DNA of 60,883 nt, filler included. It is 5 parts of 5 records of this genome, joined end to end, with 100 filler letters (N's around TTAATTAATTAA, not from the genome) between each part and the next. Parts side by side here need not be neighbours in the genome. Positions count along the whole stretch, not along the records: positions 15,052 to 45,280 come from SRR20825019_3027; 4 more parts are not named here. One strand, written 5' to 3'. The first letter of the stretch is position 1. Each line of letters begins with the position of its first letter. A program made the translations under genes and the position numbers. This document shows, piece by piece, positions 13,683 to 55,461 of this stretch. The notes beneath the pieces are model-generated. The model saw nothing but the letters and a program-made list of their open reading frames with translations. It was not told the origin of the DNA and did not search any database.

Positions 13683-13684
13683 AA

Positions 13685-30955: not shown

Positions 30956-32344
30956 TTACACCAATTTCAACTGATTTACTATTTCTTGCAAGGAAGCCTT
31001 TGCGTCACCAAAAAGGATGCTACAGTTATCAAGTCCAAAAAGATCATTTTGAATTCCTGCGTAGCCTTTATTCATACTTCTTTTCATAACAATAACTTGC
31101 TTGCTTTCATACGCACGAATTATAGGCATCCCGAACACAGGGCTATCCGGATTATTTTCAGCCGCAGGGTTTACCACATCATTGGCTCCTAAAACTAAAA
31201 CAGTATCGTATTGCGCCATGTTTTCATTGCCTTCATCCATTTCTTTTAGACGTGCATAATCTACGTTTGCTTCAGCAAGTAGCACGTTCATGTGTCCAGG
31301 CATACGGCCAGCAACGGGGTGAATAATATAATCGACTTCACAATTTCTTTTTTCTAATAACTGCTGAAGTTGGCCGCAAATATGTTGTGCCTGCGCAACT
31401 GCTAATCCATACCCAGGGATAATTGCAACTTTTTGAGCAAATGATAGTGTTAAGGCAGTTTCAGATATACTTATTTCCTTTATTTCTTGTTCTTCTTCAA
31501 TTGCACCAGCCTTACTCTTTTTAAAAGTTCCTGCGAGTACTTTCATTAGTGAACGGTTCATCGCTTTACACATTAAAAGTGTAAGTAAAATCCCTGCAGC
31601 TCCAACAAAAATACCACCAGCAATCATTGCTTTATTGCCATAAACGAAGCCAGCAAAAGCAGTTGCAATACCTGTAATACTATTTAAAAGTGAAATTACA
31701 ACTGGCATATCTGCACCACCAATTGGCAGTACAAAAAGCACCCCATATATCATGGCGATTGTAGCCAAAACATACATAAAAGCAGTAAAACCTATAGGAA
31801 TAAGGCCAACAAAATATACTATTGGTAATACGACCATTAACCCTAAAAGTATTCTTGCTGAAAAGATAACAGCTTTACTACGCCTATCTTTTACTTTTCC
31901 TGCCAGTTTTCGTTCAGCAATGATACTTCCTGTTAAGGCAATTGCACCAGTAACTAAACCAGCTATAAGTAGTATTTTATTTCCTAAAATTGTAGTTGAA
32001 ACATCAATTTGGTTGGCTTCCATTAATCCTAAAAGCATTGCACAACCTCCACCAGTTGCGTTAAACAAAGAAACCAATTGAGGCATTCCTGTCATTTCTA
32101 CTTTATCTGAAAGACGTTTGCCTACTACAGTTCCCACAGCTATTGCCAAAAACATTATTATCAGGTTTGTGTAAGGAACAGTTGCGGTAATAGCGGCTAT
32201 AAAAGTTAGTATTACGGCCAAAACCATACCAATGGCGGCTATTAAATTTCCTGTTTTTGCGCTTTTTGGGGAACTCATAAACTTTAATCCTCCCAAAAAG
32301 GATAGGGTGGCCAATAAATAGCCTACTTCAATAATTGCGTGCAT
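30956..32344 (-). CDS. pntB: NAD(P) transhydrogenase beta subunit
   Basis: GGADMPVVISLLNS, HPVAGRMPGHMNVLLAEA, GANDVVNPAA. Confidence 0.95.
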   Translation of the reverse strand: MHAIIEVGYLLATLSFLGGLKFMSSPKSAKTGNLIAAIGMVLAVILTFIAAITATVPYTNLIIMFLAIAVGTVVGKRLSDKVEMTGMPQLVSLFNATGGGCAMLLGLMEANQIDVSTTILGNKILLIAGLVTGAIALTGSIIAERKLAGKVKDRRSKAVIFSARILLGLMVVLPIVYFVGLIPIGFTAFMYVLATIAMIYGVLFVLPIGGADMPVVISLLNSITGIATAFAGFVYGNKAMIAGGIFVGAAGILLTLLMCKAMNRSLMKVLAGTFKKSKAGAIEEEQEIKEISISETALTLSFAQKVAIIPGYGLAVAQAQHICGQLQQLLEKRNCEVDYIIHPVAGRMPGHMNVLLAEANVDYARLKEMDEGNENMAQYDTVLVLGANDVVNPAAENNPDSPVFGMPIIRAYESKQVIVMKRSMNKGYAGIQNDLFGLDNCSILFGDAKASLQEIVNQLKLV

Positions 32345-32350
32345 GGTTTA

Positions 32351-32647
32351 TTATTTTTTAGGGCTAAACATTTTTAGCATACGCCCAGTAACAAAAAATC
32401 CTCCAGAAATATTAAGGGTGCCGAGAAAAATTGCGATTCCACCCAAAGTGAGGTTTAAGTAATCATCGGCAGGAACGCGAAGCATTACAATAATTGCTCC
32501 TACCAAAATTACTCCGCTTATGGCGTTGGCGCCAGACATTAATGGAGTGTGTAAAATGGCAGGTACATTTGCAATTACTTCAATGCCAATAAAGACACAG
32601 AAAATCACAAAATAAATTTCTTGAATATGTAGGTTAATGAAATCCAT
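32351..32647 (-). CDS. NAD(P) transhydrogenase alpha subunit, membrane part (PntAb)
   Basis: LHTPLMSGANAISG and GGFFVTGRML.MF. Confidence 0.93.
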   Translation of the reverse strand: MDFINLHIQEIYFVIFCVFIGIEVIANVPAILHTPLMSGANAISGVILVGAIIVMLRVPADDYLNLTLGGIAIFLGTLNISGGFFVTGRMLKMFSPKK

Positions 32648-32649
32648 GG

Positions 32650-33780
32650 TTATGCTGGTTGTAGTTGTTTTGTAAAATGAGGGTGTGACCATTCACCATT
32701 ATCCAATATTTTGCAAGCAGAAAGCAAAGTGTCTTCTGGATTTTCAGATTTAGACATATATTTAATAAATGAGAAATAGTTGTTTGAAAGTAATTTGGAA
32801 GCTGCTGCGGGTACTTCGGCAGAAAGGCTTGAGTTTCCAATTATGGTAATTCCGTTATAGTTTATAACTTCTTTGTTTTTTGAAAGTTCACAGTTTCCTC
32901 CTTGTTCTGCAGCAAGATCGATAATAACACTTCCAGGCTGCATCGCATTTACAGAGCGCGTTTCTATGAGTAAAGGTGCTTTTCTTCCAGGAATGTTTGC
33001 GGTACTGATTATAATATTTGCAGATTGTATATGCTTGTGTATTAATTCTTTTTGCTTCTGTTGGTATTCTTCGGTTTGTTCTACAGCATAACCTCCAGCA
33101 TTTGAAGATTCTACATAGCCTTCCACTTCAATAAATGTTGCACCAAGGCTACGTACTTCTTCACCAGCAGATTTTCTAACGTCAAAAACTTCAACTACGG
33201 CACCCAATCTTCTTGCTGTGGCAATGGCTTGCAAACCAGCAACACCAGCACCCAATACTAATATTTTTGCTGGGGTAAGTGTTCCAGCAGCCGTTGTAAA
33301 CATTGGAAAAACTCCATTATAAAACTCAGCCGATTTTAATATGGCACGATAACCTGCCAAAGACGCCATGGACGAAAGTACATCCATAGATTGCGCTAGC
33401 GTAGTTCTTGGTAAAAGGTCTAGGCTAAAAACAGTAGCGCCATGATTTTTGTATGTAGCGAATTTCGAATCATGAAATAGGGGATTGAAAATACCAATGA
33501 AGCAACAATCCCCCTTCATTTCCACTTCGCTAAAAGTATGATTTATGGATACAATGGTATCCGATTTTTTAAATACGCTTTCACGAGGTATGCACGTGGC
33601 TCCCGCTTTTGTGTATTCTTCATCTTCAATTTGAAGCGAGCTGCCCAGCCCAGGTTCAAAAAGCACATTGAGGTTCAACTCTCCTGTAATACGTGCTACC
33701 TCCTTGGGCAACAAACAAACCCGTGGATCATTTGGGGTTTTTAAAATTCCAATTGTCATAGGCTTTGGCTGCTCGCTCAT
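32650..33780 (-). CDS. pntA: NAD(P) transhydrogenase alpha subunit, NAD-binding part (PntAa)
   Basis: AQSMDVLSS, GAGVAGLQA, GGYA, DLAAEQGGNC. Confidence 0.93.
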   Translation of the reverse strand: MSEQPKPMTIGILKTPNDPRVCLLPKEVARITGELNLNVLFEPGLGSSLQIEDEEYTKAGATCIPRESVFKKSDTIVSINHTFSEVEMKGDCCFIGIFNPLFHDSKFATYKNHGATVFSLDLLPRTTLAQSMDVLSSMASLAGYRAILKSAEFYNGVFPMFTTAAGTLTPAKILVLGAGVAGLQAIATARRLGAVVEVFDVRKSAGEEVRSLGATFIEVEGYVESSNAGGYAVEQTEEYQQKQKELIHKHIQSANIIISTANIPGRKAPLLIETRSVNAMQPGSVIIDLAAEQGGNCELSKNKEVINYNGITIIGNSSLSAEVPAAASKLLSNNYFSFIKYMSKSENPEDTLLSACKILDNGEWSHPHFTKQLQPA

Positions 33781-33807: not shown

Positions 33808-34188
33808 TTATTTGCTAAGAATTGAAAAATATTCTTCTTTAACTTCTCTATACTTTTTTAAATGAAGCATGTATTTTTTTCTGAATTTCTCATGTTCTGT
33901 TATATAAAACATATCACAATCTGCATCTTCACATTCAGTAGCTTTAGGAAGTGCTTCTTTATATTTTAAAAAATCGTTTATAACTCGCGTATTATCTTCA
34001 TTTTCCTTTTTGAGTTTAATACGAATAGTTTCAGATGCTTCTTTTTTATGATCTCCTAAATTCTCAAGATTTAACAAGTTTGTTATTTCTTTATCTATAT
34101 AATAGAGATGCTCAATCCAGCTTTCTAATTCAATTGAATTGTTTTTGAAAGTGATTGTTTCCGGTGAGTCGTGATCGTAAATCTGCAT
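33808..34188 (-). CDS. Hypothetical helical protein with CEDADCD motif
   Basis: 126-aa ORF in operon position; amphipathic helices. Confidence 0.7.
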   Translation of the reverse strand: MQIYDHDSPETITFKNNSIELESWIEHLYYIDKEITNLLNLENLGDHKKEASETIRIKLKKENEDNTRVINDFLKYKEALPKATECEDADCDMFYITEHEKFRKKYMLHLKKYREVKEEYFSILSK

Positions 34189-34216: not shown

Positions 34217-34633
34217 CTATAATAAAACGTCTATATCGATAGGCTTTTCGGCTTGTTTTACACTTGTAATCTGTAATTCTTTAGCACCATTTGGAAAATT
34301 CCATATAACGGAATCTCCTTCTGCATAGCCCATTACGGCAGAACCCATTGGCGCTAAAATGGAAATTTTGTTGGCCGAAATATCACGGTCTGTTGGAATT
34401 ACCAATTGAAATTGGGTTTCCCAAGTCCCAGATTTTACTGTAACAAGGCTGTTGAAGCGAATTACATCTTCAGGCATGCTTTCATTGTCGTAAATAATTG
34501 CGCTGGTAAGCTCACCACTTAATTTTTTTAAAGAATCTTTTGTGTTTTGGTCTTTGTAATAACCAGTTACATTCAAAAGTCGCTTTAGAAAAACATATTC
34601 TTTTTTCTCTAATACTATATTTTCATATTTCAT
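34217..34633 (-). CDS. GreA/GreB-family factor, Rnk-like (short N-terminal coiled coil)
   Basis: MPEDVIRFNS, KISILAPMGSAVMG; 138 aa. Confidence 0.85.
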   Translation of the reverse strand: MKYENIVLEKKEYVFLKRLLNVTGYYKDQNTKDSLKKLSGELTSAIIYDNESMPEDVIRFNSLVTVKSGTWETQFQLVIPTDRDISANKISILAPMGSAVMGYAEGDSVIWNFPNGAKELQITSVKQAEKPIDIDVLL

Positions 34634-34713: not shown

Positions 34714-36009
34714 TTATGGGAAAATACCTCTTAAAATATATGCTTTTTCAATACGTTCTATGGCGATACTAAAGGCCGCAGTACGCATGTCTACTGAGTT
34801 TTCTTCAGAATAGGTTGTAACCTTTTTAAAGGTAGTGCGAAGTTTTTTCTCTAGTTTTTCAAGGATTTCATCCATTTGCCAAAGCTCTCCGTTACGGTTT
34901 TGAAGCCATTCAAAATAGCTGCCAATTACTCCGCCAGAATTACACATAATGTCTGGAATAATAGTAATACCACGCTCCAACAATATTTTTTCACCTTCCA
35001 CATCTGTAGGGCCATTAGCGCCTTCAGCAATTAATGATGCTTTTACAGAATGAGCGTTGTGTTTTGTAATTTGGTTGCCCAAAGCTGCAGGAATACAGAT
35101 GTCGCAATCTAACGCAAAGAAATCATTGCTTTCTAAAGATGTAGCCTCAGGGAATCCTACAATGCTGCCATTATTCGCTTTTCCGTAGTTAAAAAGATCC
35201 TCAACGGTGATTCCAGAATTGTTTTGAACACTTCCGAAGGCATCTTGAACACCGATCATTTTTGCGCCTTCATTTTCAAGAAAATGTGCAGCCCAATACC
35301 CAACATTTCCAAAACCTTGAACAATAAATGTTTTACCTTTTAGGCTTTGGTTGTTTTTTTCAGCCCAAAACTTAATAGTTAAAAATACACCATAACCAGT
35401 TGCGCGGTCACGACCTTCTAAACCACCACTACCTACAGGTTTTCCTGTAACTACGTGTTGGTTTTTAGAACGTTCACTCGTATTTTTAGTACTCATATAC
35501 GTATCTGCAATCCACGCCATTGTTTGGTCGTTTGTGTTTACGTCTGGTGCGGGAATATCATGTTCAGGACCAATATTTTCACCTAAAGCATAGGTGAATC
35601 TACGTGTAATTCGTTCTAATTCACTTTTAGAATACTTCGAAGGATCTATCTGAATTCCTCCTTTAGCACCGCCATAGGGTAAACCTGCTAATGATGTTTT
35701 CCATGTCATCCACATTGCTAAAGCACGTGCAGCGTCAATATCTACAGTTGGGTGATAGCGAAGACCTCCTTTATATGGGCCTAATGCATTGTTGTGTTGT
35801 ACTCTATATCCAGTAAATATTTGTACATCACCATTGTCCATACGAACCGGAAAATTGATGATTATCTCTGTATTAGTAATACTTAGAATTTTGCGAACGT
35901 TTGGGTTTAGCTTTATTTGGTCGGCAGCTGTATTAAACTGTTCCAACACATTTTCCAACATTCCTTTTTTTACAGTTATTGGTTTTTCCACTGTTTGTTC
36001 ATTTGTCAT
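34714..36009 (-). CDS. Second Glu/Leu/Phe/Val dehydrogenase (probably NAD-type glutamate dehydrogenase)
   Basis: [37 protein letters not shown]. Confidence 0.92.
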   Translation of the reverse strand: MTNEQTVEKPITVKKGMLENVLEQFNTAADQIKLNPNVRKILSITNTEIIINFPVRMDNGDVQIFTGYRVQHNNALGPYKGGLRYHPTVDIDAARALAMWMTWKTSLAGLPYGGAKGGIQIDPSKYSKSELERITRRFTYALGENIGPEHDIPAPDVNTNDQTMAWIADTYMSTKNTSERSKNQHVVTGKPVGSGGLEGRDRATGYGVFLTIKFWAEKNNQSLKGKTFIVQGFGNVGYWAAHFLENEGAKMIGVQDAFGSVQNNSGITVEDLFNYGKANNGSIVGFPEATSLESNDFFALDCDICIPAALGNQITKHNAHSVKASLIAEGANGPTDVEGEKILLERGITIIPDIMCNSGGVIGSYFEWLQNRNGELWQMDEILEKLEKKLRTTFKKVTTYSEENSVDMRTAAFSIAIERIEKAYILRGIFP

Positions 36010-36021
36010 TTTAATATTTTT

Positions 36022-36195
36022 TTAAATTGTAACCAATTCTGGCTCGCTTTTTTTGATTTTCACAATAGGTTTTGGTGCTTGGTACTGTGATTCATCAAAT
36101 TCACTACATGAAAATACCAAGCTTTTATTGTGCGTTAACACACAAAAAGATTCGTACGCACATTTAGGACAAAGGTTTAAAGAATTAGCATTCAT
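36022..36195 (-). CDS. Unannotated 57-aa cysteine-rich small protein (C-x2-C-x5-C-x11-C)
   Basis: Hand translation MNANSLNLCPKCAYESFCVLTHNKSLVFSCSEFDESQYQAPKPIVKIKKSEPELVTI; fills the gap between the sigma54 promoter and gdh2, ending 12 nt before it. Confidence 0.7.
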   Translation of the reverse strand: MNANSLNLCPKCAYESFCVLTHNKSLVFSCSEFDESQYQAPKPIVKIKKSEPELVTI

Positions 36196-36223
36196 AGATA
36201 CTTTTTGTTTGCTATTCCTATTG

Positions 36224-36238
36224 GCAAGCTGTGTGCCA
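36224..36238 (-). promoter_or_regulatory. Sigma54 (-24/-12) promoter
   Basis: Minus strand TGGCAC-ACAGC-TTGC, exact TGGCAC-N5-TTGC spacing, next to a GAFTGA activator gene. Confidence 0.85.
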
Positions 36239-36326
36239 TTAGCGCTTTTCTAGTTTAAACTATTAATTAAGCAACTGAAATAAAGAGATTTAAGTGTTTT
36301 TAGGGGATTTTTAAGACATAGTTTAT

Positions 36327-36365
36327 GTGGGGAAATTCGCACCGCGTTGGGGTAAAATTCCCCAA
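36327..36365. promoter_or_regulatory. Paired palindromic upstream activator sites
   Basis: GTGGGGAAATTCGCAC and TTGGGGTAAAATTCCCCAA: GC-rich dyads in AT-rich DNA, about 90-125 bp upstream of the -24 element. Confidence 0.7.
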
Positions 36366-36418
36366 TAACGCTATTCTAAACTATTTAATTTAGAATATAA
36401 TTTATAGAAATATAAAAA

Positions 36419-37735
36419 CTACTTTTTGAATTTACTGCGAAGTGTTTTGCGGTCAATTTTTAGAATTTCTGCAGCTTTTGTTTGATTGTTATCTGTTGCA
36501 GCCAATACTTTTTCAATATACTTTTTTTCAATTTCCTTTAAAGAAAGCATATCGTCCTCTGGAAAATCTATTTGATATTTTAAACTTTCAGGCAAATCTT
36601 TGATGCCAATAGTTCTATCACACATAATTACGGCACGCTGAATTACATTTTCTAACTCACGAATATTTCCAGGCCAATTATACCGTTGCATCAGCGTTTT
36701 TGCTTCCGAATCAATTGTTATATAGCGATCTTTGTATTCGTTTCCGTATTTTAGAAGAAATTTATCCGCCAATAATGGAATATCTTCCTTGCGTTCGCGA
36801 AGTGGTGGAACATTAATTTCAACAACCGTTAATCGGTAAAAAAGATCTTCACGAAAGGTTTCCTTTGCAATCATTTCTTTTAAATTGCTATTGGTAGCCG
36901 CGATAACACGTGCGTCTATTTTTTCACTAGTACGAGCACCTACTTTTACAATTTCTTTTTCTTGTAAAACTCTTAAAAGTCTAGATTGTACTGCAAGTGA
37001 AGCGTTGCCTATTTCATCAAGAAAAATTGTACCACCTTCAGCGGCTTGAAAAAACCCTTCACGATTGTCGTTTGCTCCTGTAAAAGCACCTTTTATATAC
37101 CCAAATAGTTCAGATTCTAACAGGTTTTCTGGAATTCCACCACAATTAACTGCTATGAATGGCGCGCGAGAAAACTTTCCGTTATAATGAATGGAGCGTG
37201 CAACGAGCTCTTTACCGGTACCGCTTTCACCACTTATATAAATTGTTGCTTTGTTATCTTTTACACGATCAATAATTTGGGTTACATTTTTTATAGCTTC
37301 ACTTTCACCAATTATTTCGTTGTATTTTTTAGTCTGCTTGCTTTCAGAAGAAGTTTTTTTATTCTTTTCTGGCGGAAGCGATTTTAGCACACTTTTTTTT
37401 AATTCTTCTTTTGTAAAAGGTTTTACCAAATAATCTACAGCGCCAAATTTAATTACAGATAGTTCATCCTGTATAGACGGGTAACCCGTAACCACAAGTT
37501 TTGGTAAAGTAGGATAATGTTCTGCGGCAAATTTTATAAGTTGAAAACCATCAACTTCAGGCATTTTTAGGTCTGTAATAAGCAAATCGATGTCAGTATC
37601 ACGCAGAATGACGATGGCTTCTTTTACTGAAACGGCTTTGTATGTATGGTAATTTAATGATTGCAAATGACGCTGGATAAGCTCCAGAATATTGATGTCG
37701 TCATCTACAATTAATATGTTTTCCTTTTGCAGCAT
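36419..37735 (-). CDS. Sigma54-dependent response regulator (NtrC/AtoC family)
   Basis: Receiver domain (VDDD, TDLKMP), GESGTGKE, GAFTGA, WPGNIREL, Fis-type HTH. Confidence 0.95.
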   Translation of the reverse strand: MLQKENILIVDDDINILELIQRHLQSLNYHTYKAVSVKEAIVILRDTDIDLLITDLKMPEVDGFQLIKFAAEHYPTLPKLVVTGYPSIQDELSVIKFGAVDYLVKPFTKEELKKSVLKSLPPEKNKKTSSESKQTKKYNEIIGESEAIKNVTQIIDRVKDNKATIYISGESGTGKELVARSIHYNGKFSRAPFIAVNCGGIPENLLESELFGYIKGAFTGANDNREGFFQAAEGGTIFLDEIGNASLAVQSRLLRVLQEKEIVKVGARTSEKIDARVIAATNSNLKEMIAKETFREDLFYRLTVVEINVPPLRERKEDIPLLADKFLLKYGNEYKDRYITIDSEAKTLMQRYNWPGNIRELENVIQRAVIMCDRTIGIKDLPESLKYQIDFPEDDMLSLKEIEKKYIEKVLAATDNNQTKAAEILKIDRKTLRSKFKK

Positions 37736-37740: not shown

Positions 37741-38829
37741 TTATTGTTTCGGAAAAGTAATAATAAATAATGCACCTGTTGGGTTATTAGCTTGATAATC
37801 TATGGTGCCTTGATGGCTTTTTATAATTCCATGAACCACGCTTAACCCTAAACCAGAGCCATCACCCACGGTTTTTGTTGTAAAAAATGGCTGAAATATT
37901 TTCTGAACATTTTCTGGTTCAATGCCAGACCCTTCATCAGAAATTTTAAGAATTATTTTTTTTGAAGTTTCTTCCAAAGTTATTTCAATCAAGCCATTTT
38001 TAGGTGAAAAATAAATGGCGTTTAGCACCAAATTAAAGATTACTTGGGTAAGCTGAATGGTGTCAGCTTTTAGTAAAACTTCTCCTTTTGGGAATTTAGT
38101 TTTATAATTTAATTCATTTTTTTTGAAAGTTGCATCTAGAAGATTTATGGCATCTTTTATTACGGGAACAATGTCGGTTTTTATGAAATTTTGCGGCATT
38201 TCACAAGCAAAGAACATTAGTTTTTTTACTACTTCACGCGAAAAAATAGCACTGTTTATAATTTTATCGAGATCTTTATTAGCTTGAATGCTGTTTGGCT
38301 CTTTGCCTTTAAGGAGTTCTGCAAAGCCTAAAATATTTGCAAGAGGTGTGTTGAGTTCGTGTGCTATTCCTGCAGTAATTTCCCCCAAAATACTTAAGCG
38401 GTCTGCGTGTTCCATTTTTCGTTTTATAACGGCCTCGTTTTCTCTAATGGCAACACGTTCTAATAAATCGCCTACATTGATGGCAACGTTTTTTAGCAAT
38501 TTTTTTTCCTCTTTTAAAAAATCTTTTTTCTCAAATTTATCTGTGGAATAGTGAACTTTTATATATCCTTTTGGCTCATTGAAAATAGTAATCTTACTTT
38601 CAATAAACACACTTTTATGTGGTAAAGCTGAAGTAATAAGATGAAATTTCTCAGCCTTGATTTCTACTATAGTGTTTTTACTATACTGAAAAGACTTGCG
38701 TAAACTAAGTGCGATGGAGTAAAGCGTTTTATCTACTTCTTTATAATCGTTATTTACTATTATAGAAGAAACTTCGTATAGACAGGTAAGTTCTTTAATG
38801 CGTTCTTTAAGGTTTTTCTCTATAGTCAT
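37741..38829 (-). CDS. Cytoplasmic sensor histidine kinase
   Basis: AHELNTPL H-box, N/G/F boxes (FQPFFTTK, GSGLGL); no TM segment; N-terminal LKERIKELTCLY. Confidence 0.92.
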   Translation of the reverse strand: MTIEKNLKERIKELTCLYEVSSIIVNNDYKEVDKTLYSIALSLRKSFQYSKNTIVEIKAEKFHLITSALPHKSVFIESKITIFNEPKGYIKVHYSTDKFEKKDFLKEEKKLLKNVAINVGDLLERVAIRENEAVIKRKMEHADRLSILGEITAGIAHELNTPLANILGFAELLKGKEPNSIQANKDLDKIINSAIFSREVVKKLMFFACEMPQNFIKTDIVPVIKDAINLLDATFKKNELNYKTKFPKGEVLLKADTIQLTQVIFNLVLNAIYFSPKNGLIEITLEETSKKIILKISDEGSGIEPENVQKIFQPFFTTKTVGDGSGLGLSVVHGIIKSHQGTIDYQANNPTGALFIITFPKQ

Positions 38830-38954: not shown

Positions 38955-39308
38955 TTATTTTAGGTCTTTTTTCACCAACAGATAGAAATCATTATCCAGC
39001 GGTAAGTAACCTTGATCGTATAAATAAAAGTATGTTGCGCCAGATTTTGTGGTGTAAATCCCAGTAAAAAAATCAAAATTAAAACCCATTCGTAGCAGTT
39101 TATCTTTGGTGGTTTTGGTTTTGTCTTCGGGATTTAAAGTTTCAAGTATGCGATAGTTTTTTCGAAGCCTATTATTAATATTTCGAACCAGATTTTTGTT
39201 GTCCTTGTTCAACGAATTATTATGTGCGTTTCGACATGCATCACTACAGAATTTTTTGTCAATTCGCCCAATTAATTTATCGCCACATTCCGGACAAGTT
39301 CTTTCCAT
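38955..39308 (-). CDS. Zinc-ribbon hypothetical protein (DUF2116-like)
   Basis: CPECG...GRIDKKFCSDACR. Confidence 0.75.
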   Translation of the reverse strand: MERTCPECGDKLIGRIDKKFCSDACRNAHNNSLNKDNKNLVRNINNRLRKNYRILETLNPEDKTKTTKDKLLRMGFNFDFFTGIYTTKSGATYFYLYDQGYLPLDNDFYLLVKKDLK

Positions 39309-45380: not shown

Positions 45381-46286
45381 TTCGCCGTACCCAATTAATG
45401 CAACAGTCCCGTCTCGACTTAGGTTGAAACCTACCTCATTCATGACGAAGGCTCCCTCGGCTCGAGGAAAATCATCGACATTCAGTCCGCGTCTTGCTTG
45501 ACGCACGGCTGCTACGTCGTTGATGCCACCGCTTGCGAGGTTGGAGACCATCTCCACATGGCCATCGTCGGTTCCGAACCTGGTGGACCTGGTTTCGACA
45601 TCCCCGTCGCTTGCTGACTTGACGGCGCGGCTCAAAGAGATGCGTGCGGTTCGGACAGAGCAGATTCCCAGTGCAGTAACTTCCTGCCACACTTGGTCGA
45701 TTGCGTTACTGTGATCGATTTCCTTACTACGGTGGATCAGTATGGCTACGAACGGGTCAGCGAAGCGCCATTCAAAACGTACCGTACTGCGATCAAGTCG
45801 CTGGCGGTAAGCTTCGTATTTGTATACCTCCAACCCTTCTTGCTGTGGGCTGATGTCTTTTGCACGAATACGGTTCCAACCTTCTTTTCCTTGCTGCCAA
45901 GCAAGCGAGATACCCTCTTCGCCCAGTTCGATGTTCGATAGCTGAAGTTCGTCGGGAAACTCGTAGCCAAACCCTTGCTCAATCAACGGAGAAAACTCAC
46001 TTTGCGAGATCGCTTCCTTTGCATCTCCCCGTGTGATTTCGGGGGGCTCGAATAGATAGAGATGTTGGTTACCCCATCCTTCGACCTGCTTAAGCCAAGC
46101 TTCGATCATCTCCCGAGTAAGGAGATCCTCGTCGATGGCGTTGGTTATGTTGGTCAGGAAGTCCTTTTTCGTGGAACCAATGGGAAGGCTGTTCTCCCTC
46201 AATAGCTCTTTGATATATTGGTTGCCTTGAATCAGCAGAATCTCTTCAACTTGCGTTTTTAAAAGTGCTTTGTCTTCTGCCGTCAT
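45381..46286 (-). CDS. Hypothetical protein, probable transposon cargo (3' truncated)
   Basis: >300-aa open frame, visibly lower GC than the neighbouring tns genes; no recognised family. Confidence 0.7.
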
Positions 46287-46747
46287 TACTAAAATCCGCT
46301 TAGTATTAATAGGAAAGACCATAACATAGCACAGCCCCAACGAGAAATCGTGTCTTTCTCCACAACTATTTGAACTTTACCTGTGGCCAGCGCCGATACC
46401 TAGTTCTTAGCGATGTTTGGCTAGGTTCCAGACTCATTGATTTTCACAGCCAGAACAAAACTATTGCGGCGAGGATGATGTAGGGGTTTTGTTGCACAAA
46501 TTAGCCGATGGCCGTGGCTCCCCTTTTCCCGGGCGGACTTAAACACATTCCTGCCGGACATTGAAACTCTCATAGCCACCACAGAATTTGCCGTCATTCT
46601 TATAAGGAATGCCAGATCCTATAATGTTGTCAAACACTTACCTCGCACTCATCGTCGAATAGTTATTGACCTAAGTGCGACGGACGTGATTCGATGTAGT
46701 CGTGGGTATGGTCCATATTTGGTATCTTCCACATGGAGGACCGCAAA

Positions 46748-46969
46748 ATGCTCGATCAGAACCGCCACAAGGAAATCAAGCGTCGACTACGCGAATGTGG
46801 CACTTCGATCACGCAAATCGCCCGTGATATCGGCAAGGATCAGAGTACGGTGACGATCGTCAGCCAAGGCCATCGTAAGTCCGATCCCATTCAGCGGGCG
46901 ATCGCGGAGCGGCTCGGCACAACCGCCGAAGCCCTTTTCCCCGAACGGTACAAGGAGGAAAGCGGATGA
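46748..46969 (+). CDS. Ner/SfsB-like HTH regulator
   Basis: IKRRLRECGTSITQIAR...IAERLGTTAEALFPERY; GGAGGA RBS. Confidence 0.8.
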   Translation: MLDQNRHKEIKRRLRECGTSITQIARDIGKDQSTVTIVSQGHRKSDPIQRAIAERLGTTAEALFPERYKEESG

Positions 46970-47199
46970 ATTAGATAGCCCAAAAACAAGAGAACTCCAA
47001 CAAGCATAGCCTGCCAGAGTCCTGATGTCGTATCGATTGGTACCCGATAGCTTCATCTTCCCTCACACGGCAGAAAAGTCAAGTCCGGTGGCGAGTGACC
47101 GCCCTCGGAAGTCGTGTTCAAATGAGATGAAAGGGGACCGCCTCCCCCGGTCAGTCGCGCGCTACGCATGGCACAGGGGGAGGTGTGTCCGATTAAGAA

Positions 47200-47886
47200 A
47201 TGAACCAACAAACACACACATTCCGTCCCCCTCACCCTTCGAGAGGCCTTCGCAAAATATCCTTTCGGTCCCGTGGTAGTTGCCGCACGTCGTCTGCGTG
47301 CTCAATGCCGAGCGTCGACGGTTTGATCACGGTCGACTGCGAAAGCAGGCTGGAGGACCGGACACGTTCGATCCTGCTTGCGCAACCCGGTCTTCATGAT
47401 CTGCGGGAGCAGTATCCACGCGTCGAGTATCACGGCAACGATGGCGTCCGCCGGTGGCACACGTTCGATTTCATGGCCACGTACCAAACGGGTCGCCGTA
47501 TCGCTATCGCCGTCAAACCAAAGAAGCTATCGGATCGGCGGCGGTTCTTCGAGGAACTCGTGGACGTTGAGGCTGCGCTACCTCGCCGCGTGGCCGACGA
47601 GGTAAGGCTCGTCACCGACGACGACATCGACCGCACCGAGGCGACGAATGCCGCCCGCTACCTTCATTTCGCGCGCGATACCGACCCGGAGGCGGATGCG
47701 TGGCTGACCGAACGTCTCCGGCGGGCGGACGGCCAACTCTCGGTGTCGGACCTGATCAACGAAAGCGACATGGGTGGGCGCATGTTCCGCGCAGTGTTCC
47801 GTGCGATTTACGTCGGACACCTTCGTGCCGATCGCCGCTCTCCGATCACGGTCGCAAGCGTCGTTTTCCGGGAGTCTGTCCAATGA
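47200..47886 (+). CDS. TnsA-like endonuclease-fold protein
   Basis: ESRLE, EQYP..Y, HTFDF, AVKP and a C-terminal wHTH-like region; coupled to tnsB. Confidence 0.7.
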   Translation: MNQQTHTFRPPHPSRGLRKISFRSRGSCRTSSACSMPSVDGLITVDCESRLEDRTRSILLAQPGLHDLREQYPRVEYHGNDGVRRWHTFDFMATYQTGRRIAIAVKPKKLSDRRRFFEELVDVEAALPRRVADEVRLVTDDDIDRTEATNAARYLHFARDTDPEADAWLTERLRRADGQLSVSDLINESDMGGRMFRAVFRAIYVGHLRADRRSPITVASVVFRESVQ

Positions 47887-50054
47887 CCATCCGCATGAAA
47901 TTTGCCGAGACGGACCGTCTTCTCATACACGGCACGGCTTACAGGGTCGCCGACCACGACGAATACAGCCTCACCGTGTTCCAACACGATAACCCCGGCA
48001 TAACCGAGACCATCGCGTTCGAGGAGATGTCGCGCCTTCTCCGCACACGAACGGCCCATCTTCAACGAGGGTTTTACGATCGGGCTTCCCGGAGCGCATC
48101 TTCGAATGATTTCGAGGGTTTGAACGACCTTCCGGCTGATGTGCAGAGCGAAGTTCTCTGGCGGCACCGTTGGTGTACCCTGCTCGACGAACGGCGCAAG
48201 CGAGGTGCCCTAGTTCTGACCCGGAACTCGATCCGACAGGCAATAACAGATCTCGTACCGCAGATCATCGAAATGGAAACCGCCGCACAGCGCGGAGCCC
48301 GGAAAAGACGGTCCGCTTCGAAAATCGAACTTCACGATCTCCCCAAACCATCCACTCTCCTCGAATGGTACCGGAATTATCGCGATGGCGCGCGTACGAT
48401 CATGGCTCTCGTCCCTGAATTGTATCGATCCGGCAATCGAACACGTCGCTTCAGCTTGGCCACGGAGGCATTCGTCAGCAAGAGCATCGAGGACTACGCT
48501 TGTCCACTGCGGCCCTCCAAGGCACAAGTCGTGGAAAGGACGATGCTTCGGATCAAAGAAGAGAACCGTTGCCGCACGGACGCCGGAGAATTGCCTCTCG
48601 ACCTTATGTCCGGTCGAACGATACGTCGTCGCCTGGATGGCCTCGATCCCTATCATACCTACGCGCAGCGGTTCGGCCCCGCTGCCGCCAACAGAAAGTT
48701 TAACATCAGTGAAAACGGCGACAAAGCGCTCTTCCCGATGGAGGTTCTCGAAACGGACTCGTGGAAGATTGATCTCATCACCTTGTTCGCGCGCAGCGGT
48801 ATCCTGGAAGGGCTAAACCCCGAGATGCGCGCGCGGCTCGAAAAGGGCCGACGATGGATCACGGTCGCGATCGACAAGGCCACGCGTGTCGTGGTCGCGT
48901 TCCGCATCGTCGACGCACCCTCGGCAGCGAGTTCGGTCGCCGTCATCGCGGACGCGACTCGAGACAAATCACATATCGCGCGAGCCATGGGCTGCGAAAA
49001 TCCGTGGCCCTTCCACGGGGGGCTAAACGTCGTCAGCGCCGACATGGGCCCCGAGAATAACAACGAGACCTTCCGCGCTGCCATCCACTCGGCGGGCGGA
49101 AACGTCATCTACGGGCCCGCGAGTCAGCCGCAGCTCAGGGGTATGGTCGAGAGCCTATTCCGCACCTTCGGACAGAAGCTCATGCCACTTCTCCACGCTC
49201 GCACGCATTCAAACCCCGTCGAGAAAGGCGACTATGACGCCGAGCGATACGCCAGTCTCGCCGATGACGAACTGACGCGGATAGTCACGAGGTACATCGT
49301 CGACATATATCACCAGCAAGGACACGAGGGGCTCGGAGGGGAAACGCCTGCGCACTGCTGGAAGCGCCTGAGTAATCTCTACGGCGTCACTCCGCCACCA
49401 GACGGACATGTCCGGCGGGCCGCATTCGGCATCCCAAACAACCGTATAATTGTTGGCGGCAACATTAAAGTTGTAGGGATAGAGTACACGTCCGATGCGG
49501 TTCGAAATCAATTTCTGCATGGTCACGATAGCAACGTCGATGTCCGCATGGATCCGCAGGACTTGGGCTGGATCACCGTTCGGATCGACCGGAAATGGCA
49601 CGCCGCCGAAGCTGTTCCCGAAGGGTTTCATGGTCGTTCTCTGGACGAGTGGATCGACACCTGTACAGCGCTGCGCCAGAAGCATCGACGTGATGCCGCG
49701 ATCCATGAAGACTCCATCCGCCGCGCATTCGACGGGATAGAAACGATCCAGAGGGACGCGCTTCTGAGGATGGAATTGACACCGAGCCGTATGTCAGCAG
49801 AGGCGCTACATCGCCTCGAAGGGGAATTGTTCCTCGGGCTGAACATCACGACGGAGGCCAAGCAGGGCGGTTCCGACGGATCGAGATTGATCGTCTCTCG
49901 CAATCGTCAAGAGGGACCGGACGAGGACGATTCGTCCGACATCGGGATCGGCAAGCCGGTTCGTCCGAACACCGACGGATCAGGGGGCAGTGCTGTGCCC
50001 GAGGACGATCATGAAGCCGACGGGCACTCGCCCTGGACACTGGAGGACGAATGA
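47883..50054 (+). CDS. TnsB/Mu-like DDE transposase
   Basis: LETDSW, AIDKATR, ADMGPE, RGMVESLF (D-D-E), YH..H.GL..TP, and C-terminal Mu-type domain (VRMDPQDLGWI). Confidence 0.9.
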   Translation: MTIRMKFAETDRLLIHGTAYRVADHDEYSLTVFQHDNPGITETIAFEEMSRLLRTRTAHLQRGFYDRASRSASSNDFEGLNDLPADVQSEVLWRHRWCTLLDERRKRGALVLTRNSIRQAITDLVPQIIEMETAAQRGARKRRSASKIELHDLPKPSTLLEWYRNYRDGARTIMALVPELYRSGNRTRRFSLATEAFVSKSIEDYACPLRPSKAQVVERTMLRIKEENRCRTDAGELPLDLMSGRTIRRRLDGLDPYHTYAQRFGPAAANRKFNISENGDKALFPMEVLETDSWKIDLITLFARSGILEGLNPEMRARLEKGRRWITVAIDKATRVVVAFRIVDAPSAASSVAVIADATRDKSHIARAMGCENPWPFHGGLNVVSADMGPENNNETFRAAIHSAGGNVIYGPASQPQLRGMVESLFRTFGQKLMPLLHARTHSNPVEKGDYDAERYASLADDELTRIVTRYIVDIYHQQGHEGLGGETPAHCWKRLSNLYGVTPPPDGHVRRAAFGIPNNRIIVGGNIKVVGIEYTSDAVRNQFLHGHDSNVDVRMDPQDLGWITVRIDRKWHAAEAVPEGFHGRSLDEWIDTCTALRQKHRRDAAIHEDSIRRAFDGIETIQRDALLRMELTPSRMSAEALHRLEGELFLGLNITTEAKQGGSDGSRLIVSRNRQEGPDEDDSSDIGIGKPVRPNTDGSGGSAVPEDDHEADGHSPWTLEDE

Positions 50055-51004
50055 TGTCCGAGGCTCTTCTGCAATTGGTCGGCGAGCAAATCGCCGACCT
50101 TCAGGCCCACTTCGTGCGGCACGAGCGGTTCCGACAGCTCGACGAGGTTTTCCGGCTCCTCAAACACAGGCGGCAGGCCGACCTTCGCGCTGGTCGATCC
50201 CGCGAGCTGCGTGGGATCGCCGTCATAGGTGCATCGGGAAGCGGCAAGACCACCGCCGTGGATAGACTTCTGCGAAACGCATCGAAAGACGGAGACACCG
50301 GCGACCATTGGGAAATCATCAGCCTGCGCGTTCCCTCGCCTGCCACGGTGAAATTCGTCGGGCAGACAATCCTTCGGGGGCTCGGCTATCCCGTCAACGG
50401 TCGGCGGGAGGCATGGTACGTCTGGAACCTCGTTCGTCACCACCTGCGGGAACGGCAAACACTCTTCCTCCATCTCGACGAAGCGCAGGACCTTGCGGCA
50501 CGGGGCACCGAACGCGAACGCCAGTCCGTCGTGAACCTTCTGAAATCCCTAATGCAGGACCCCGACTGGCCGGTCTGCCTCATTCTCTCTGGGACCGGCG
50601 AGCTTGCGGACATCCTGAATTTCGACCCGCAACTCGGCAGGCGGTTTCAGCCGATCCGGTTCGACCCCGTTAACGAGATCTCCGATCTGGGCAAGGTCCG
50701 CGACCTGCTTTCCGCGTATGTCGCCAAGACCTCTCTATCCGCCGACGACGGGATCGAGACGAACGAGTTCGCAGCCCGTCTCGTCCATGCTGCCGCCAAT
50801 GAGTTCGGCCTGATCATTGAGATCACAATCGCCGCCATCGAGGTAGCGTTTCTCAGGCAGGGGGCATCGCTGACGGTCGCGGATTTCGCCGGTGCGTTTC
50901 GGCGGCGGACGGGCTGCATCGACGGGCTCAATCCGTTCGTCGCGCAGAATTTCCGTCGGATCGACCCGCGCGAGCTGTTGGCTGACGAGGGACGGATCGC
51001 ATGA
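50051..51004 (+). CDS. TnsC/TniB AAA+ ATPase
   Basis: GASGSGKT Walker A, LHLDEAQ Walker B, QLGRRF arginine finger. Confidence 0.9.
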   Translation: MMSEALLQLVGEQIADLQAHFVRHERFRQLDEVFRLLKHRRQADLRAGRSRELRGIAVIGASGSGKTTAVDRLLRNASKDGDTGDHWEIISLRVPSPATVKFVGQTILRGLGYPVNGRREAWYVWNLVRHHLRERQTLFLHLDEAQDLAARGTERERQSVVNLLKSLMQDPDWPVCLILSGTGELADILNFDPQLGRRFQPIRFDPVNEISDLGKVRDLLSAYVAKTSLSADDGIETNEFAARLVHAAANEFGLIIEITIAAIEVAFLRQGASLTVADFAGAFRRRTGCIDGLNPFVAQNFRRIDPRELLADEGRIA

Positions 51005-52827
51005 CGGACATCAAGCCCCCGTCTCCGCTCTCCGTTCCGAGCCACGACGATGAGACATTCATGTCGCTCGTGTCCCGCATCGCGGCCCGGAACGGCGCTG
51101 CCGACCTCTCAGATTTCAGAAAAGACATTGGCGTCCGTCAGGAAGACATGTTTCGGGCTGATCCGGAAGCATTGGCGGAACTCGCGCTCGGTGCTGGTAT
51201 ACCCGATCATCCGTCTCTCCGGCGAACGCCCGTTGCGTTCGATGGCGGTCGCTTCGCTTACGGAAAAGCGATCCTGACGTCGAGAGATCTCGCCCGGTTT
51301 CACGTTCGCATTTGCCAGAAGTGCATCAACGGCGACCGGCGCCGCGATTCCGTACTCGGCCCCTATCAACGGATCGAATGGCTTCTCGCGGATGTCCACA
51401 CGTGCCACGAGCACAATTGCCTTCTGATTGATGTCACGGACACTGTGGGCTCGTGCGGCAGATTGGACTTTCACCTCGCGATCCAAAATGCTGATCTGCG
51501 AGCCTTTCCGCGGCTCGGCGACCGAGTCACGCCCCAGCATCGCGGCCTCGAAAACTACCTCATCGGACGGGTCGGGGGCGCTCGGGCATCCGCGTTTCTG
51601 GACGGGCTGGAGTACCGGGTCGTCGCAGCGACCTCTACTGCGCTCGGGTGCTTGATCCGGTCGGGTCCGAAGGCGAAACTCGACGACTTGTCCCAGCGGG
51701 AGATCCGTTCAGCAGGACACTACGGCTTTCAGGTCCTCAGCGAAGGCACGGCGTCGTTTCGGGAAGCTCTCGAAAGGATCCGTATGTCGAAGCCCGTAGC
51801 GGCGGCCAAGCACCGCAAACGTTTTGGAGGGTTCTTCGACTGGCTTCGGAACAAGGAAGACCCGGCATTCAATCCGATCAAGGATATAGTCCGTGAGTAT
51901 ATCCTCGACACGTTTCCGGTGCCGGAAGGAATGGAGGTGCTCGGTGTGGAATGCGGCGAGCAGCGTCGTCACACGCTCGCGACCGGGGCGCGAATGATCG
52001 ATATGAATCGTGCACGCCTGGGCCATCGTCTCGTTGAGCGTGGGTTGGCTTCAGTCAAACCCGGTAGACCTATTCCGGTTCTCCTTGACTACATCCCCGT
52101 CGATGTTCTGGAACAAATGAAGAAAGACGAGGCGACCGATTACGACCTCGACGAAGTCTGCGAGCTGTTCGGAGTGCATCGCAACATCGCCGGGCGTTTG
52201 GCGAGGGCTGGTTTTCTCGGAACGCGTTCGTTCGAGGATACCGGCACCTATAGATTCGAGCGAGACGACGTATGGAAGCTAAAGTATCGGCTTTTCGGCA
52301 CGGTTGCGACGCGCTCGCTCGGAACCGACACTCACCTGCCGCTTTTCGATGCGGCCCGTCAATTCCGCCTGCCGATCGAAGCCCTGATCCATTATTGCTG
52401 CAACGAAACGTTGAAGCTGAAGCATCCTCCATCGTCGCGACGCTTGTTAACCGACCTTCTCGTTCCCATCGACGAGTTGAAAAGGCACATCGAGCCGAAG
52501 CGCTCGGAGGGGCTTTTGCATAAGGACGCCGCCAAGACCCTGCATGTTGATCGGCAGACTATCTCCGAGTTGGTCGCTGCTGGTAAGCTGGTCGAGAAGT
52601 CCATCCACATTCCATATGCGGACCACAGCATACGCTACATCACGGTCGAATCGTTGCGTGCTTTTCGCGCAGACTATATTTCACTCGCCAACTTGGCTTT
52701 AAGCATCGACCGCGAACCTGGCCCTTACGCACAGTATCTGGCGGCACGCGGCATTCGGCCGTGCGTCGATATCGCGTCAAGTTCCCGCATCTACAAGCGC
52801 ACGGACTTTCGTCGCAAGAAAGACTGA
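51001..52827 (+). CDS. TniQ/TnsD family target selector with C-terminal HTH repeats
   Basis: DETFMSLVSRIAARNG, zinc motif CQKC...CHEH, then repeated HTH-like segments. Confidence 0.85.
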   Translation: MTDIKPPSPLSVPSHDDETFMSLVSRIAARNGAADLSDFRKDIGVRQEDMFRADPEALAELALGAGIPDHPSLRRTPVAFDGGRFAYGKAILTSRDLARFHVRICQKCINGDRRRDSVLGPYQRIEWLLADVHTCHEHNCLLIDVTDTVGSCGRLDFHLAIQNADLRAFPRLGDRVTPQHRGLENYLIGRVGGARASAFLDGLEYRVVAATSTALGCLIRSGPKAKLDDLSQREIRSAGHYGFQVLSEGTASFREALERIRMSKPVAAAKHRKRFGGFFDWLRNKEDPAFNPIKDIVREYILDTFPVPEGMEVLGVECGEQRRHTLATGARMIDMNRARLGHRLVERGLASVKPGRPIPVLLDYIPVDVLEQMKKDEATDYDLDEVCELFGVHRNIAGRLARAGFLGTRSFEDTGTYRFERDDVWKLKYRLFGTVATRSLGTDTHLPLFDAARQFRLPIEALIHYCCNETLKLKHPPSSRRLLTDLLVPIDELKRHIEPKRSEGLLHKDAAKTLHVDRQTISELVAAGKLVEKSIHIPYADHSIRYITVESLRAFRADYISLANLALSIDREPGPYAQYLAARGIRPCVDIASSSRIYKRTDFRRKKD

Positions 52828-52846
52828 TTTATTTATCCTTAGGATG

Positions 52847-52873
52847 GGGCCGACCTTCGGGGCGGTCCTTTTT
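52847..52873 (+). terminator. Terminator after tniQ
   Basis: GGGCCGACC-TTCG-GGGCGGTCC stem plus TTTTT. Confidence 0.75.
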
Positions 52874-52892
52874 CGTCGACCTAGTTGCGGAC

Positions 52893-53006
52893 GAGTCGGT
52901 GCCTTTTTGGCAAAGAGTCGGGATTGCGTGATACATCCGCCAGAACAGTATCGGAAAACCAGTGTCTATTCGTTTTTCTGAATCGGATACTTTGTGGCAC
53001 GTATCA
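52893..53006. repeat. Putative transposon end with four degenerate TnsB-binding sites
   Basis: GAGTCGGTGCCTTTTTGGCA (52893), GAGTCGGGATTGCGTGATAC (52915), GTATCGGAAAACCAGTGTCT (52948), GAATCGGATACTTTGTGGCA (52980), then CGTATCA. Confidence 0.6.
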
Positions 53007-53201
53007 TCCCCCAGTCGGGAGGATTTCCAGCACACTCCCAGGTAAAGACATCAACTGGCGGTCGTCCTATGGACGTAACCCGCTAGCGGCAGCGATTTGG
53101 CCCCGCATTGATCCGCTCTCTTGGTATCAAAAGCATACCTATGGGCGGTGCAGGCCAACCAGAACGCACTGCGCGTCATACCGTTCGCTTTGCGACGACC
53201 C

Positions 53202-53615
53202 CTACTCCTGAATGCTCTCCAGATAGGCCAGCAACCCCGCCAGCACGCGCGGTGTTGGTGTCAGCACGCCGTCGATCTCCACCGGCACCAGATCCTGTGC
53301 CATTGCGCCGCCAAACTCCGGCATGACGCGGGCAAGGTGGGACTGTTCGGGATCGCCATAGATATAGCTCAGCGCTCGCGCGGACGGGAACGTGCCGCCG
53401 TTGTGACGGCTCAGCGTGGTCAGATTGGCAGGCCTGGCTTGCAGCCCGTCGACAAAGGCGCCGTTGCCCCGCCCCCGAGCGCCATGACACGCCACGCAAT
53501 TGTCGGCAAAGAACGCCGCCCCGTCCGTCCGGTCGGGCATGACAGGATCGGTACAGGCCACAAGCCCTGCCGCCACCAAGGCCAGACTGACGGTGATCGA
53601 AAAGAAACTGCGCAT
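53202..53615 (-). CDS. c-type cytochrome lipoprotein
   Basis: Lipobox LVAC, CVACH haem motif, MPEFG axial Met. Confidence 0.9.
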   Translation of the reverse strand: MRSFFSITVSLALVAAGLVACTDPVMPDRTDGAAFFADNCVACHGARGRGNGAFVDGLQARPANLTTLSRHNGGTFPSARALSYIYGDPEQSHLARVMPEFGGAMAQDLVPVEIDGVLTPTPRVLAGLLAYLESIQE

Positions 53616-53717
53616 AGGACCCTCATTCCATAGTTCCCGCACAGTTTCGCGCGCGGCCCATCCCGCCGCCATGATCCACATCAAGTTGCCCGCAAATACC
53701 CCCTTGCAGGCAGCGCC

Positions 53718-55064: not shown

Positions 55065-55461
55065 TTTCCTCGCTGCGGCCCATGATCTCTTCTTCCATGT
55101 TCCAGATCATGTTCAGGATTTCCTCGCGGGTGGGCGCATAGTCGGGATGTTTCTTGACCTCGCGCAGGTCCGCGCCCACGCCCAGATCGGCAAAGGGCAG
55201 GCGGTATTCCTTGTGAATACGCCCCGGACGCGGCGCCATCACCACCAGACGCTCGCCCAGCAACAGCGCCTCTTCGACCGAGTGGGTGATCAGGATGATG
55301 GTCTTGCCCGTCTCCTTCCACAGCTTCAGCACCAGGCTTTGCATCTTTTCGCGGGTCAGCGCGTCCAGCGCGCCCAGCGGTTCGTCCATCAGGATCACAT
55401 CTGGGTCGTTGGCCAGACAGCGGGCCAGCGCCACGCGCTGTTGCATCCCGCCCGACAGTTC
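55057..55461 (-). CDS. ABC transporter ATP-binding protein, TauB type (5' truncated)
   Basis: [35 protein letters not shown]. Confidence 0.88.

Follow-up and report, generated by a model that had tools for sequence, protein, structure and literature searches.

The stretch of DNA analysed here (the window, 60,883 nucleotides (nt)) encodes a four-cysteine microprotein of 57 amino acids (aa), which lies directly upstream of a glutamate dehydrogenase gene (gdh, product Gdh). Translation of the open reading frame (ORF, 36195..36022) places cysteines at residues 9, 12, 18 and 30, giving the pattern C-x2-C-x5-C-x11-C, and bears out the ORF and the cysteine spacing that a first-pass annotation of this DNA had read there. 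The stop codon occupies 36024-36022 and the ATG of gdh stands at 36009, which leaves 12 nt between the two genes, the distance that had been claimed. The four-cysteine (Cys4) module covers approximately residues 5-35 and is followed by a variable tail (residues 36-57) ending in E-L-V-T-I. The protein contains no signal peptide-like hydrophobic stretch, its highest Kyte-Doolittle mean being 0.65. A collection of about 15 billion predicted proteins does not contain the exact protein. The gene is therefore truly unannotated in this genome, though its relatives are annotated as genes in others; this agrees with the earlier remark that the ORF was absent from the gene track.

The four-cysteine microprotein family

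Orthologous loci were collected from species-representative genomes with the Gdh protein alone as bait. The resulting 80 Gdh-anchored loci all belong to Flavobacteriaceae or unclassified Bacteroidota, and those of Aequorivita are the nearest to the window (85-92% Gdh identity). In 68/80 of these loci gdh is preceded by an in-frame ORF that has this cysteine pattern. An exhaustive phmmer search over 1.84 billion representatives returned 31 relatives at E<=0.001, and a profile search returned 53 related proteins, of which those that carry a name are all 'hypothetical' or 'uncharacterized'. No Pfam domain is listed for 52 of these 53; the sole listed domain, PF13751 on relative P0077, looks spurious. 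A word-index homologue search with the single window protein found no relatives.

Alignment A1 comprises 79 sequences: the window protein, 65 sequences from the 68 loci and 13 from the 31 library representatives. Left out were three near-duplicate loci and those representatives that are listed with long N-terminal extensions. The start methionine and C9, C12, C18 and C30 are invariant in this alignment, and L20, T21, S29 and E32 are conserved in at least 90% of sequences. The third and fourth cysteines are separated by 11 residues in 69/69 sequences, and exactly four cysteines are present in 60/69. The importance that had been attached to the cysteine pattern is well founded, as it is the most conserved feature of the family.

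Selection was assessed in nine sequences of the Aequorivita group. The proportion of non-synonymous differences is below that of synonymous differences (pN < pS) in 36/36 pairs. The ratio of non-synonymous to synonymous rates (dN/dS) is 0-0.45 for the Cys module in the 28 of 36 pairs with unsaturated dS, and 0.05-1.08 for the tail. Across the whole family the entropy of the three codon positions is 0.94/0.79/1.41, the third position varying most. A search of Rfam over 35800-36600 gave nothing at E<=1, so an RNA element is not indicated. The joint conservation of frame, cysteines and amino acids shows that the ORF is a genuine protein gene, with the signature of a translated product under purifying selection, and neither a chance ORF nor an RNA element. 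This is the outcome of the check that the first-pass annotation had proposed, namely conservation upstream of orthologous gdh genes together with dN/dS.

The family consists of uncharacterised proteins of about 45-70 aa. Its core is a module of about 30 residues, C-x2-C-x5-C-x11-C then S-C-S-E-[YF], and the tail that follows is variable in length and in charge (net charge -8 to +6). The tail ends in [LMIV]-x-[LMTVIF]-[IVLA] in 41/69 sequences, and this hydrophobic end could be a docking or turnover signal.

The window microprotein matches no family at E<=0.1 in Pfam or at E<=1 in NCBIfam, and a Pfam scan of each of the 79 members gave no significant match. Below the threshold, Zn_ribbon_IS1595 (PF12760) appears in 24/79 members (E up to 10, best E 0.0035), the window member not among them, Opy2 in 16/79 and NADH-G_4Fe-4S_3 (PF10588) in 4/79 (best E 0.012). 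Membership of PF12760, or of the classical zinc ribbons, was rejected, the module having one CxxC and not two, with no significant match. PF10588-type sites, in which a [4Fe-4S] cluster is ligated by histidine and cysteine, follow the pattern H-x3-C-x2-C-x5-C. Membership of this family was rejected too, as there is no significant match and no conserved histidine four residues before the first cysteine in A1.

Structural comparison places the module in no described fold family. The A1 profile has 0 matches among PDB sequences at E<=10. AlphaFold2, given A1, predicts a compact module with a predicted local distance difference test score (pLDDT) of 70-80 over approximately residues 8-35, a helix at residues 30-38 and a disordered tail. 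Neither Foldseek (E<=10) nor VIA-align against 48,161 chains (Z>=2) found a match to this model, results that carry little weight for a 30-residue module and a moderate model. A search of the ESM Atlas gave solely unnamed 'hypothetical' Bacteroidota clusters; DUF6472, which scored 0.80 there, is at chance level. No fused or longer forms were found among 5,004 candidates, which is weak evidence.

The four invariant cysteines fall within a span of 22 residues and one pair forms a C-P-x-C knuckle; for these reasons we think it likely that the four cysteines together hold one metal centre. Zinc is the most likely metal because of the knuckle. Iron or an iron-sulphur (Fe-S) cluster is possible, because the C-x2-C-x5-C spacing occurs in some [4Fe-4S] sites. 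The binding of Zn or Fe-S suggested in the first pass is therefore plausible. The Cys4 module is predicted to be a rigid mini-domain for protein contacts. Two points count against the metal site: no metal-binding family was reached at significance, the Pfam matches being sub-threshold only, and the AlphaFold2 model is weak overall (mean pLDDT 64.6, predicted template modelling score 0.36).

The module also occurs in tandem. Two metagenome contigs, L130 and L131, encode a two-module relative of 100 aa (P0031). Its gene is flanked by those of a sigma-54 regulator and a RocG-type Gdh, and ahead of the regulator comes a kinase that shares the N-terminal motif of the window's kinase (see below). 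In the GC-rich contig L133 a two-module protein of 115 aa precedes a Gdh of a different class (454 aa), the order there being sigma-54 regulator, 142-aa protein, pntAA/AB/B, tandem protein, 454-aa Gdh, Rnk-like gene, Cys-rich 210-aa protein and a second Rnk-like gene. The short contig L132 encodes a two-module protein of 86 aa after a sigma-54 regulator, with a next ORF that is not gdh, and a family-sample locus with the usual cassette, L123, encodes a two-module form of 87 aa. Comparison of A1 with the L133 and L132 proteins by hhalign gave 93% probability (E 2-3e-7), and eight cysteines are invariant in nine aligned tandem sequences. The tandem forms stop right after the second module and have no tail; the Cys4 module is therefore taken to be the unit of function. 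Their existence makes it probable that two modules act together, and suggests that the single-module proteins dimerise.

The 210-aa protein of L133 (6933-8529 together with its flanking Rnk-like genes) has several CxxC pairs and an N-terminus that we take to be NuoE-like.

The sigma-54 promoter and the gdh cassette

Upstream of the microprotein gene lies a sigma-54 promoter element (Table 1). The pattern sought, TGGCAC-N5-TTGCW, has its GG and GC elements 10 nt apart and should be accompanied by an enhancer-binding protein; the window has the element upstream of the gene, and the neighbouring regulator has the sigma-54 activator domain PF00158. Counting the C of the -12 GC (36224) as -12, transcription is predicted to start near 36212, which gives a leader of about 17 nt and agrees with the earlier placing of the ORF just past the predicted start. 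The strict pattern is found upstream of the small ORF in 50/68 loci, in 49 of the 68 at 24-42 nt before the ATG and in the remaining one 174 nt upstream. A relaxed pattern is found in 57/68 loci against a background of 0.011 per 120 nt, and most of the 11 misses have a TTGT variant of the -12 element. In the whole window the strict pattern occurs twice, where 0.57 matches are expected; the second match is inside unrelated GC-rich DNA. We read the microprotein gene as the first cistron of a conserved, predicted sigma-54 operon, which upholds the operon position assigned to it in the first pass.

An inverted repeat, TGGGGAAATT / AAATTCCCCA, is located at 36328-36337 and 36355-36364, some 90-130 bp before the -24 element, and its half-site is also directly repeated in this region. 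The related half-site 7-mer TGGGTAA occurs in 27/69 upstream regions (median -156 from the ATG), and similar GGGGA...TCCCC elements precede the tandem forms in L130 and L132. The inverted repeat is likely to be the binding site of the adjacent regulator.

A second TGGCA(C/T) is found 12-21 nt upstream of the -24 element in L013, L021, L034, L043, L044, L053, L065 and L075. It stands about 60 nt before the ATG of the small ORF, is not in the window, and could reflect a duplication of the -24 box or a promoter overlapping this one.

Table 1. Features of the microprotein cassette and its surroundings, in positions of the window
Feature	Position	Strand	Basis or remarks
Four-cysteine microprotein gene	36022..36195	-	57 codons + stop; translation
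Sigma-54 promoter, -24 GG / -12 GC	36223..36238	-	TGGCAC-N5-TTGCC; pattern, conserved
Probable activator-binding site (upstream activating sequence, UAS)	36326..36364	-	Inverted repeat + direct half-site repeat; binding inferred
NtrC-type response regulator	36419..37735	-	PF00072 1.2e-23, PF00158 7.4e-68, PF02954 1.6e-12
Soluble histidine kinase	37741..38829	-	HisKA + HATPase_c
Glutamate dehydrogenase (gdh), 431 aa, second cistron	34714..36009	-	PF00208, PF02812
Rnk-like protein, 138 aa, GreA/GreB C-terminal domain	34217..34633	-	PF01272 2.2e-18
126-aa protein without known family	33808..34188	-	Conserved E-C-x4-C-D
pntAA, pntAB, pntB (proton-translocating NAD(P) transhydrogenase)	30956..33780	-	Names from translations

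The conserved order of the cassette is kinase, sigma-54 regulator, microprotein, gdh, Rnk-like gene and 126-aa gene, and all six genes are present in 61 of the 80 Gdh-anchored loci. The next ORF starts at most 60 nt after the microprotein gene in 63/68 loci (median 15 nt). The regulator consists of a receiver domain, a sigma-54 AAA+ activator domain and a Fis-type helix-turn-helix. In the kinase no 19-residue segment exceeds a Kyte-Doolittle mean of 1.36, so a membrane-type hydrophobic stretch is absent, and the earlier description of it as lacking a membrane sensor stands. Its N-terminal domain (about 140 aa, 38395-38829) has no Pfam relative, and residues 1-145 have no PDB relative. This domain contains an invariant E-R-x-K-E-L-x-C-x-Y in an alignment of 63 sequences (A2) that includes the distant L131 kinase, and it is taken to be an uncharacterised cytoplasmic sensor domain.

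The Gdh is of the RocG/GudB/Thermotoga type, with PDB matches to 1b26 (3e-118) and to the Bacillus NAD-specific Gdh structures 3k92 and 3k8z (about 1e-103). The Rnk-like protein matches 2pn0 (2.6e-14) and Rnk itself (3bmb, 1.8e-9). The 126-aa protein has no relative in Pfam, NCBIfam or PDB; in an alignment of 77 sequences W24, E34 and C86 are conserved at 100% and C91 at 98%, and it forms a second uncharacterised family within the same operon. By tblastn synteny, L133 and the Aequorivita group are the only places where the pnt genes are linked to the cassette.

Another small ORF is conserved in 15 loci (L011, L031, L033, L036, L037, L042-L044, L046, L053-L055, L060, L069 and L074), where it separates the Cys4 ORF from gdh. 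Its product is basic, 40-49 aa long, and conserved in its C-terminal part, which ends in ...E-R-S-I-x-N-R-[LY]-F-K. It begins about 20-25 nt after the Cys4 ORF and is absent from the window. It is also found in two loci from which the Cys4 ORF has been lost (L038 3805-3924 and L051 3835-3954), a total of 17/80.

Just upstream of the kinase the window encodes a 117-aa protein (38955-39308, minus strand) with a treble-clef-like N-terminal C-x2-C...C-x3-C; it has weak family matches only and is syntenic in the Aequorivita loci L008-L010 and L016. The window is a mosaic in GC content, with values of 0.55-0.63 at 1-14500 and 46000-60883 and of 0.33-0.37 at 15000-45000. The central low-GC segment of about 30 kb is Aequorivita-like and contains the microprotein cassette, and the mosaic looks like joined contigs or a chimeric assembly.

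The distribution of the gene was followed by profile search in a family sample of 301 genomes and a phylum sample of 401 genomes. The microprotein gene is present in 45/301 of the family sample, with a single match in each and, in one genome, a second, interrupted match. The phylum sample gave matches at E<=0.01 in 7/401 genomes; three are strong, all of them also in the family sample, and the remaining four are weak, three having internal stops. A small-ORF-anchored set was made from 40 of the 46 listed profile-match places, taken without reference to gdh; it overlaps with the Gdh-anchored set and comes from the same genome collection, so the two are not independent samples. The Cys4 ORF is found in 40/40 of these loci, kinase plus regulator in 39/40, gdh in 39/40, the Rnk-like gene in 39/40 and the 126-aa gene in 36/40.

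In the representative genome of Aequorivita viscosa (L016/G002) there is no match to the family, and gdh has no such ORF ahead of it. The protein collection nevertheless contains a 90-aa 'hypothetical protein [Aequorivita viscosa]' (P0037) with 63% identity, presumably from a different assembly of that name.

The ORF is missing from 12/80 Gdh-anchored loci. In L008, L009, L010 and L017 the sigma-54 element can still be aligned and the ORF has decayed, by replacement of the Cys codons in L008, by an early stop in L009 and by divergence in L010 and L017; L051 retains a truncated remnant. On the Gdh tree the presence and absence of the ORF requires 8 changes, at least 5 of them forced by well-supported branches, which indicates that the ORF was ancestral to this gdh clade and was then lost repeatedly. 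The microprotein is an accessory and not an indispensable component, because its ORF decayed repeatedly while promoter, kinase, regulator and gdh stayed.

Possible partners of the microprotein

The first pass had suggested a sensing or feedback partner of the adjacent kinase. Our proposal, which we put forward tentatively and with the balance somewhat against it, is that the microprotein feeds back on the kinase/regulator pair. The pair would fire the sigma-54 promoter, the microprotein would be made only then, and it would then influence one of the two proteins as a feedback subunit whose effect depends on dosage or on redox/metal state, tuning the pair as an accessory without being an obligatory part of it. 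Such feedback is favoured because the microprotein would be made only when the pair is active, and because a sigma-54 regulator is nearby in every lineage found, even where the Gdh is of a different class (L133). The tandem relatives follow a sigma-54 regulator in L131/L130, L132, L133 and L123. It is favoured further because the ORF can be retained without gdh next to it: L111 has it with no gdh behind, and L132 apparently does likewise. The ORF is present in 65/72 loci with an adjacent kinase and regulator vs 3/8 of the others (Fisher p 0.0014, ignoring phylogeny). If the microprotein is indeed a feedback or sensing subunit, it would represent a new accessory class in sigma-54 two-component signalling.

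Several observations weigh against this proposal. The association with kinase/regulator adjacency is confounded by shared ancestry, and a tree-aware paired test gave a median p of 0.5 with 5-7 pairs only, and is underpowered. The ORF stands directly before gdh in 39/40 small-ORF-anchored loci and 68/68 Gdh-anchored carriers, a position that supports a link to Gdh equally. Three of the 68 carriers (L047, L048 and L072), and L117, have the ORF without a kinase or regulator in the fetched stretch. Conversely, seven loci without the ORF keep kinase and regulator, six of them with the rest of the cassette and L078 also without the 126-aa gene; the kinase/regulator system therefore works without the microprotein. 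Every partner assignment is inferred from gene context, which is ambiguous between the regulator and gdh.

As the leading alternative, the microprotein may be a small regulatory or accessory subunit of Gdh, made in step with the enzyme and modulating it, for example in response to redox state via the Cys4 module; we regard this as unlikely, if well worth considering. CP12, which modulates GAPDH/PRK, and GarA/OdhI, which modulate actinobacterial Gdh, provide analogies. The ORF is directly upstream of gdh in nearly all loci, with a short distance to the next ORF (median 15 nt, 12 nt in the window), the tandem form of L133 precedes a Gdh, of the other class, beside pnt genes, and the theme of the operon is NAD(P)H and glutamate. 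That same Gdh of L133 creates a difficulty, as the partner interface would need to persist across two distant Gdh classes. L111 keeps the ORF with no gdh behind it, another small ORF intervenes before gdh in 15 loci, and close Gdh orthologues work without the microprotein after its decay. If this reading is true, a central nitrogen/carbon enzyme would gain a new small regulator in the microprotein.

A stronger version of the feedback proposal makes the Cys4 module a redox- or metal-sensitive, possibly Fe-S, input subunit through which the soluble kinase, with its N-terminal domain outside any known family, would read a signal that it does not sense alone. We consider this improbable. The microprotein cannot be the obligatory sensor of the system, because repeated losses have left kinase, regulator, promoter and gdh in place. 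If such an input subunit did exist, sigma-54 two-component systems would have a novel type of split sensor and feedback device, in which a 6-kDa metalloprotein made by the kinase's own regulon controls glutamate catabolism and NAD(P)H balance in marine Flavobacteriaceae.

It is decidedly doubtful that the microprotein works with the Rnk-like GreA-family protein, and hence with RNA polymerase, or with the 126-aa protein, possibly through a shared metal site. The near-constant company of both genes in the small-ORF-anchored loci (39/40 and 36/40), the two Rnk-like genes next to the tandem form in L133 and the two near-invariant cysteines of the 126-aa protein fit such a partnership. It rests on co-occurrence, and the co-occurrence is incomplete: the ORF is kept in L049, L050 and L068 without an Rnk-like gene and in L077 without the 126-aa gene, and neither gene lies within the short contigs L130/L131.

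The ORF could also be a leader or upstream ORF whose translation couples to or gates that of gdh, the peptide itself being functionless. Its place as first cistron, the short leader and the very short gap to gdh in many loci would suit such a role. A pure leader peptide fits poorly, however, with purifying selection on the amino acids and the invariant cysteines, with the natural tandem duplication of the module, and with the wide spacing seen in many loci, where the next ORF is 119-135 nt away or gdh 160-450 nt away; gdh and its promoter also persist after the ORF has decayed. We judge it very improbable. A precursor of a ribosomally synthesised and post-translationally modified peptide was considered and set aside, as no modifying enzymes were noticed on reading the cassette ORFs and domain matches. 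A chance ORF in AT-rich intergenic DNA would agree with the absence from the gene track, the lack of the exact sequence in the 15-billion-protein collection and the lack of a Pfam or NCBIfam match, but is practically refuted by recurrence in 68/80 loci with invariant M1 and cysteines, by purifying selection (dN/dS), and by the 31 phmmer relatives at E<=0.001 and 53 profile relatives called as genes elsewhere.

Comparison with known systems

These proteins form an uncharacterised Cys4 microprotein family at a defined regulatory position. In the portions of the literature on sigma-54/rpoN, Gdh and small Cys proteins that were accessible to us, no description of this ORF or cassette in Flavobacteriaceae was found. 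Small proteins are routinely missed by annotation, and the one missed here is a conserved family with a fixed cysteine signature and under purifying selection. It would be the first product of the sigma-54 promoter that drives a catabolic Gdh in many marine Flavobacteriaceae, bacteria with a major part in degrading protein-rich organic matter. The finding opens an uncharacterised regulatory cassette with a soluble kinase whose sensor domain is uncharacterised, an NtrC-type regulator, a Rnk-like factor and a second protein without a family.

The C-x2-C-x5-C motif is found in Fe-S sites of the FNR N-terminus, the Wbl proteins, cluster N5 of NuoG and Endo III. The spacing of three of the four cysteines is identical in the microprotein, and the NuoG-type model PF10588 appears below threshold in 4/79 members (best E 0.012), whereas the position of the fourth ligand and the surrounding fold differ.

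The haloarchaeal small C(P)xCG zinc-finger micro-proteins, such as HVO_2753, have paired CxxC knuckles. Like the proteins described here they are shorter than 70 aa, contain four cysteines including a C-P-x-C knuckle, have no enzymatic domain and are often missed by annotation. The present family differs in having one knuckle and two lone cysteines at fixed spacing, and belongs to a different taxon; neither HVO_2753_ZBP nor any other zinc-ribbon Pfam model reached threshold.

The gene rocG of Bacillus subtilis is RocR/SigL-dependent, and is not known to have a comparable ORF. Sigma-54 control of Gdh in Bacillota has been described (PMC12316311). Both systems have a catabolic RocG-type Gdh, a sigma-54 promoter and a dedicated enhancer-binding protein. 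Here, in contrast, gdh is preceded by a Cys4 microprotein gene, and activation falls to a phospho-receiver regulator that has a kinase of its own.

ZraP is a small zinc-binding accessory of the sigma-54 two-component system ZraS/ZraR; it is periplasmic, larger, not a Cys4 protein, and divergently transcribed. The likeness is that the regulated promoter yields a small metal-binding protein, which tunes a kinase and its NtrC-type regulator, as proposed here. The difference is that the kinase of the cassette is soluble and that the microprotein has no signal peptide-like stretch (highest Kyte-Doolittle mean 0.65).

PspA, a coiled-coil protein of about 220 aa with no Cys4 site, acts on PspF in the sigma-54 psp operon of enterobacteria, and PspF is not a two-component regulator. 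PspA/PspF have no sequence or fold relation to the Cys4 microprotein, and the activator here is a two-component regulator. What the two systems would share is that the leading gene of a sigma-54 operon encodes a protein acting on the operon's own activator, which matches the mechanism proposed for the microprotein.

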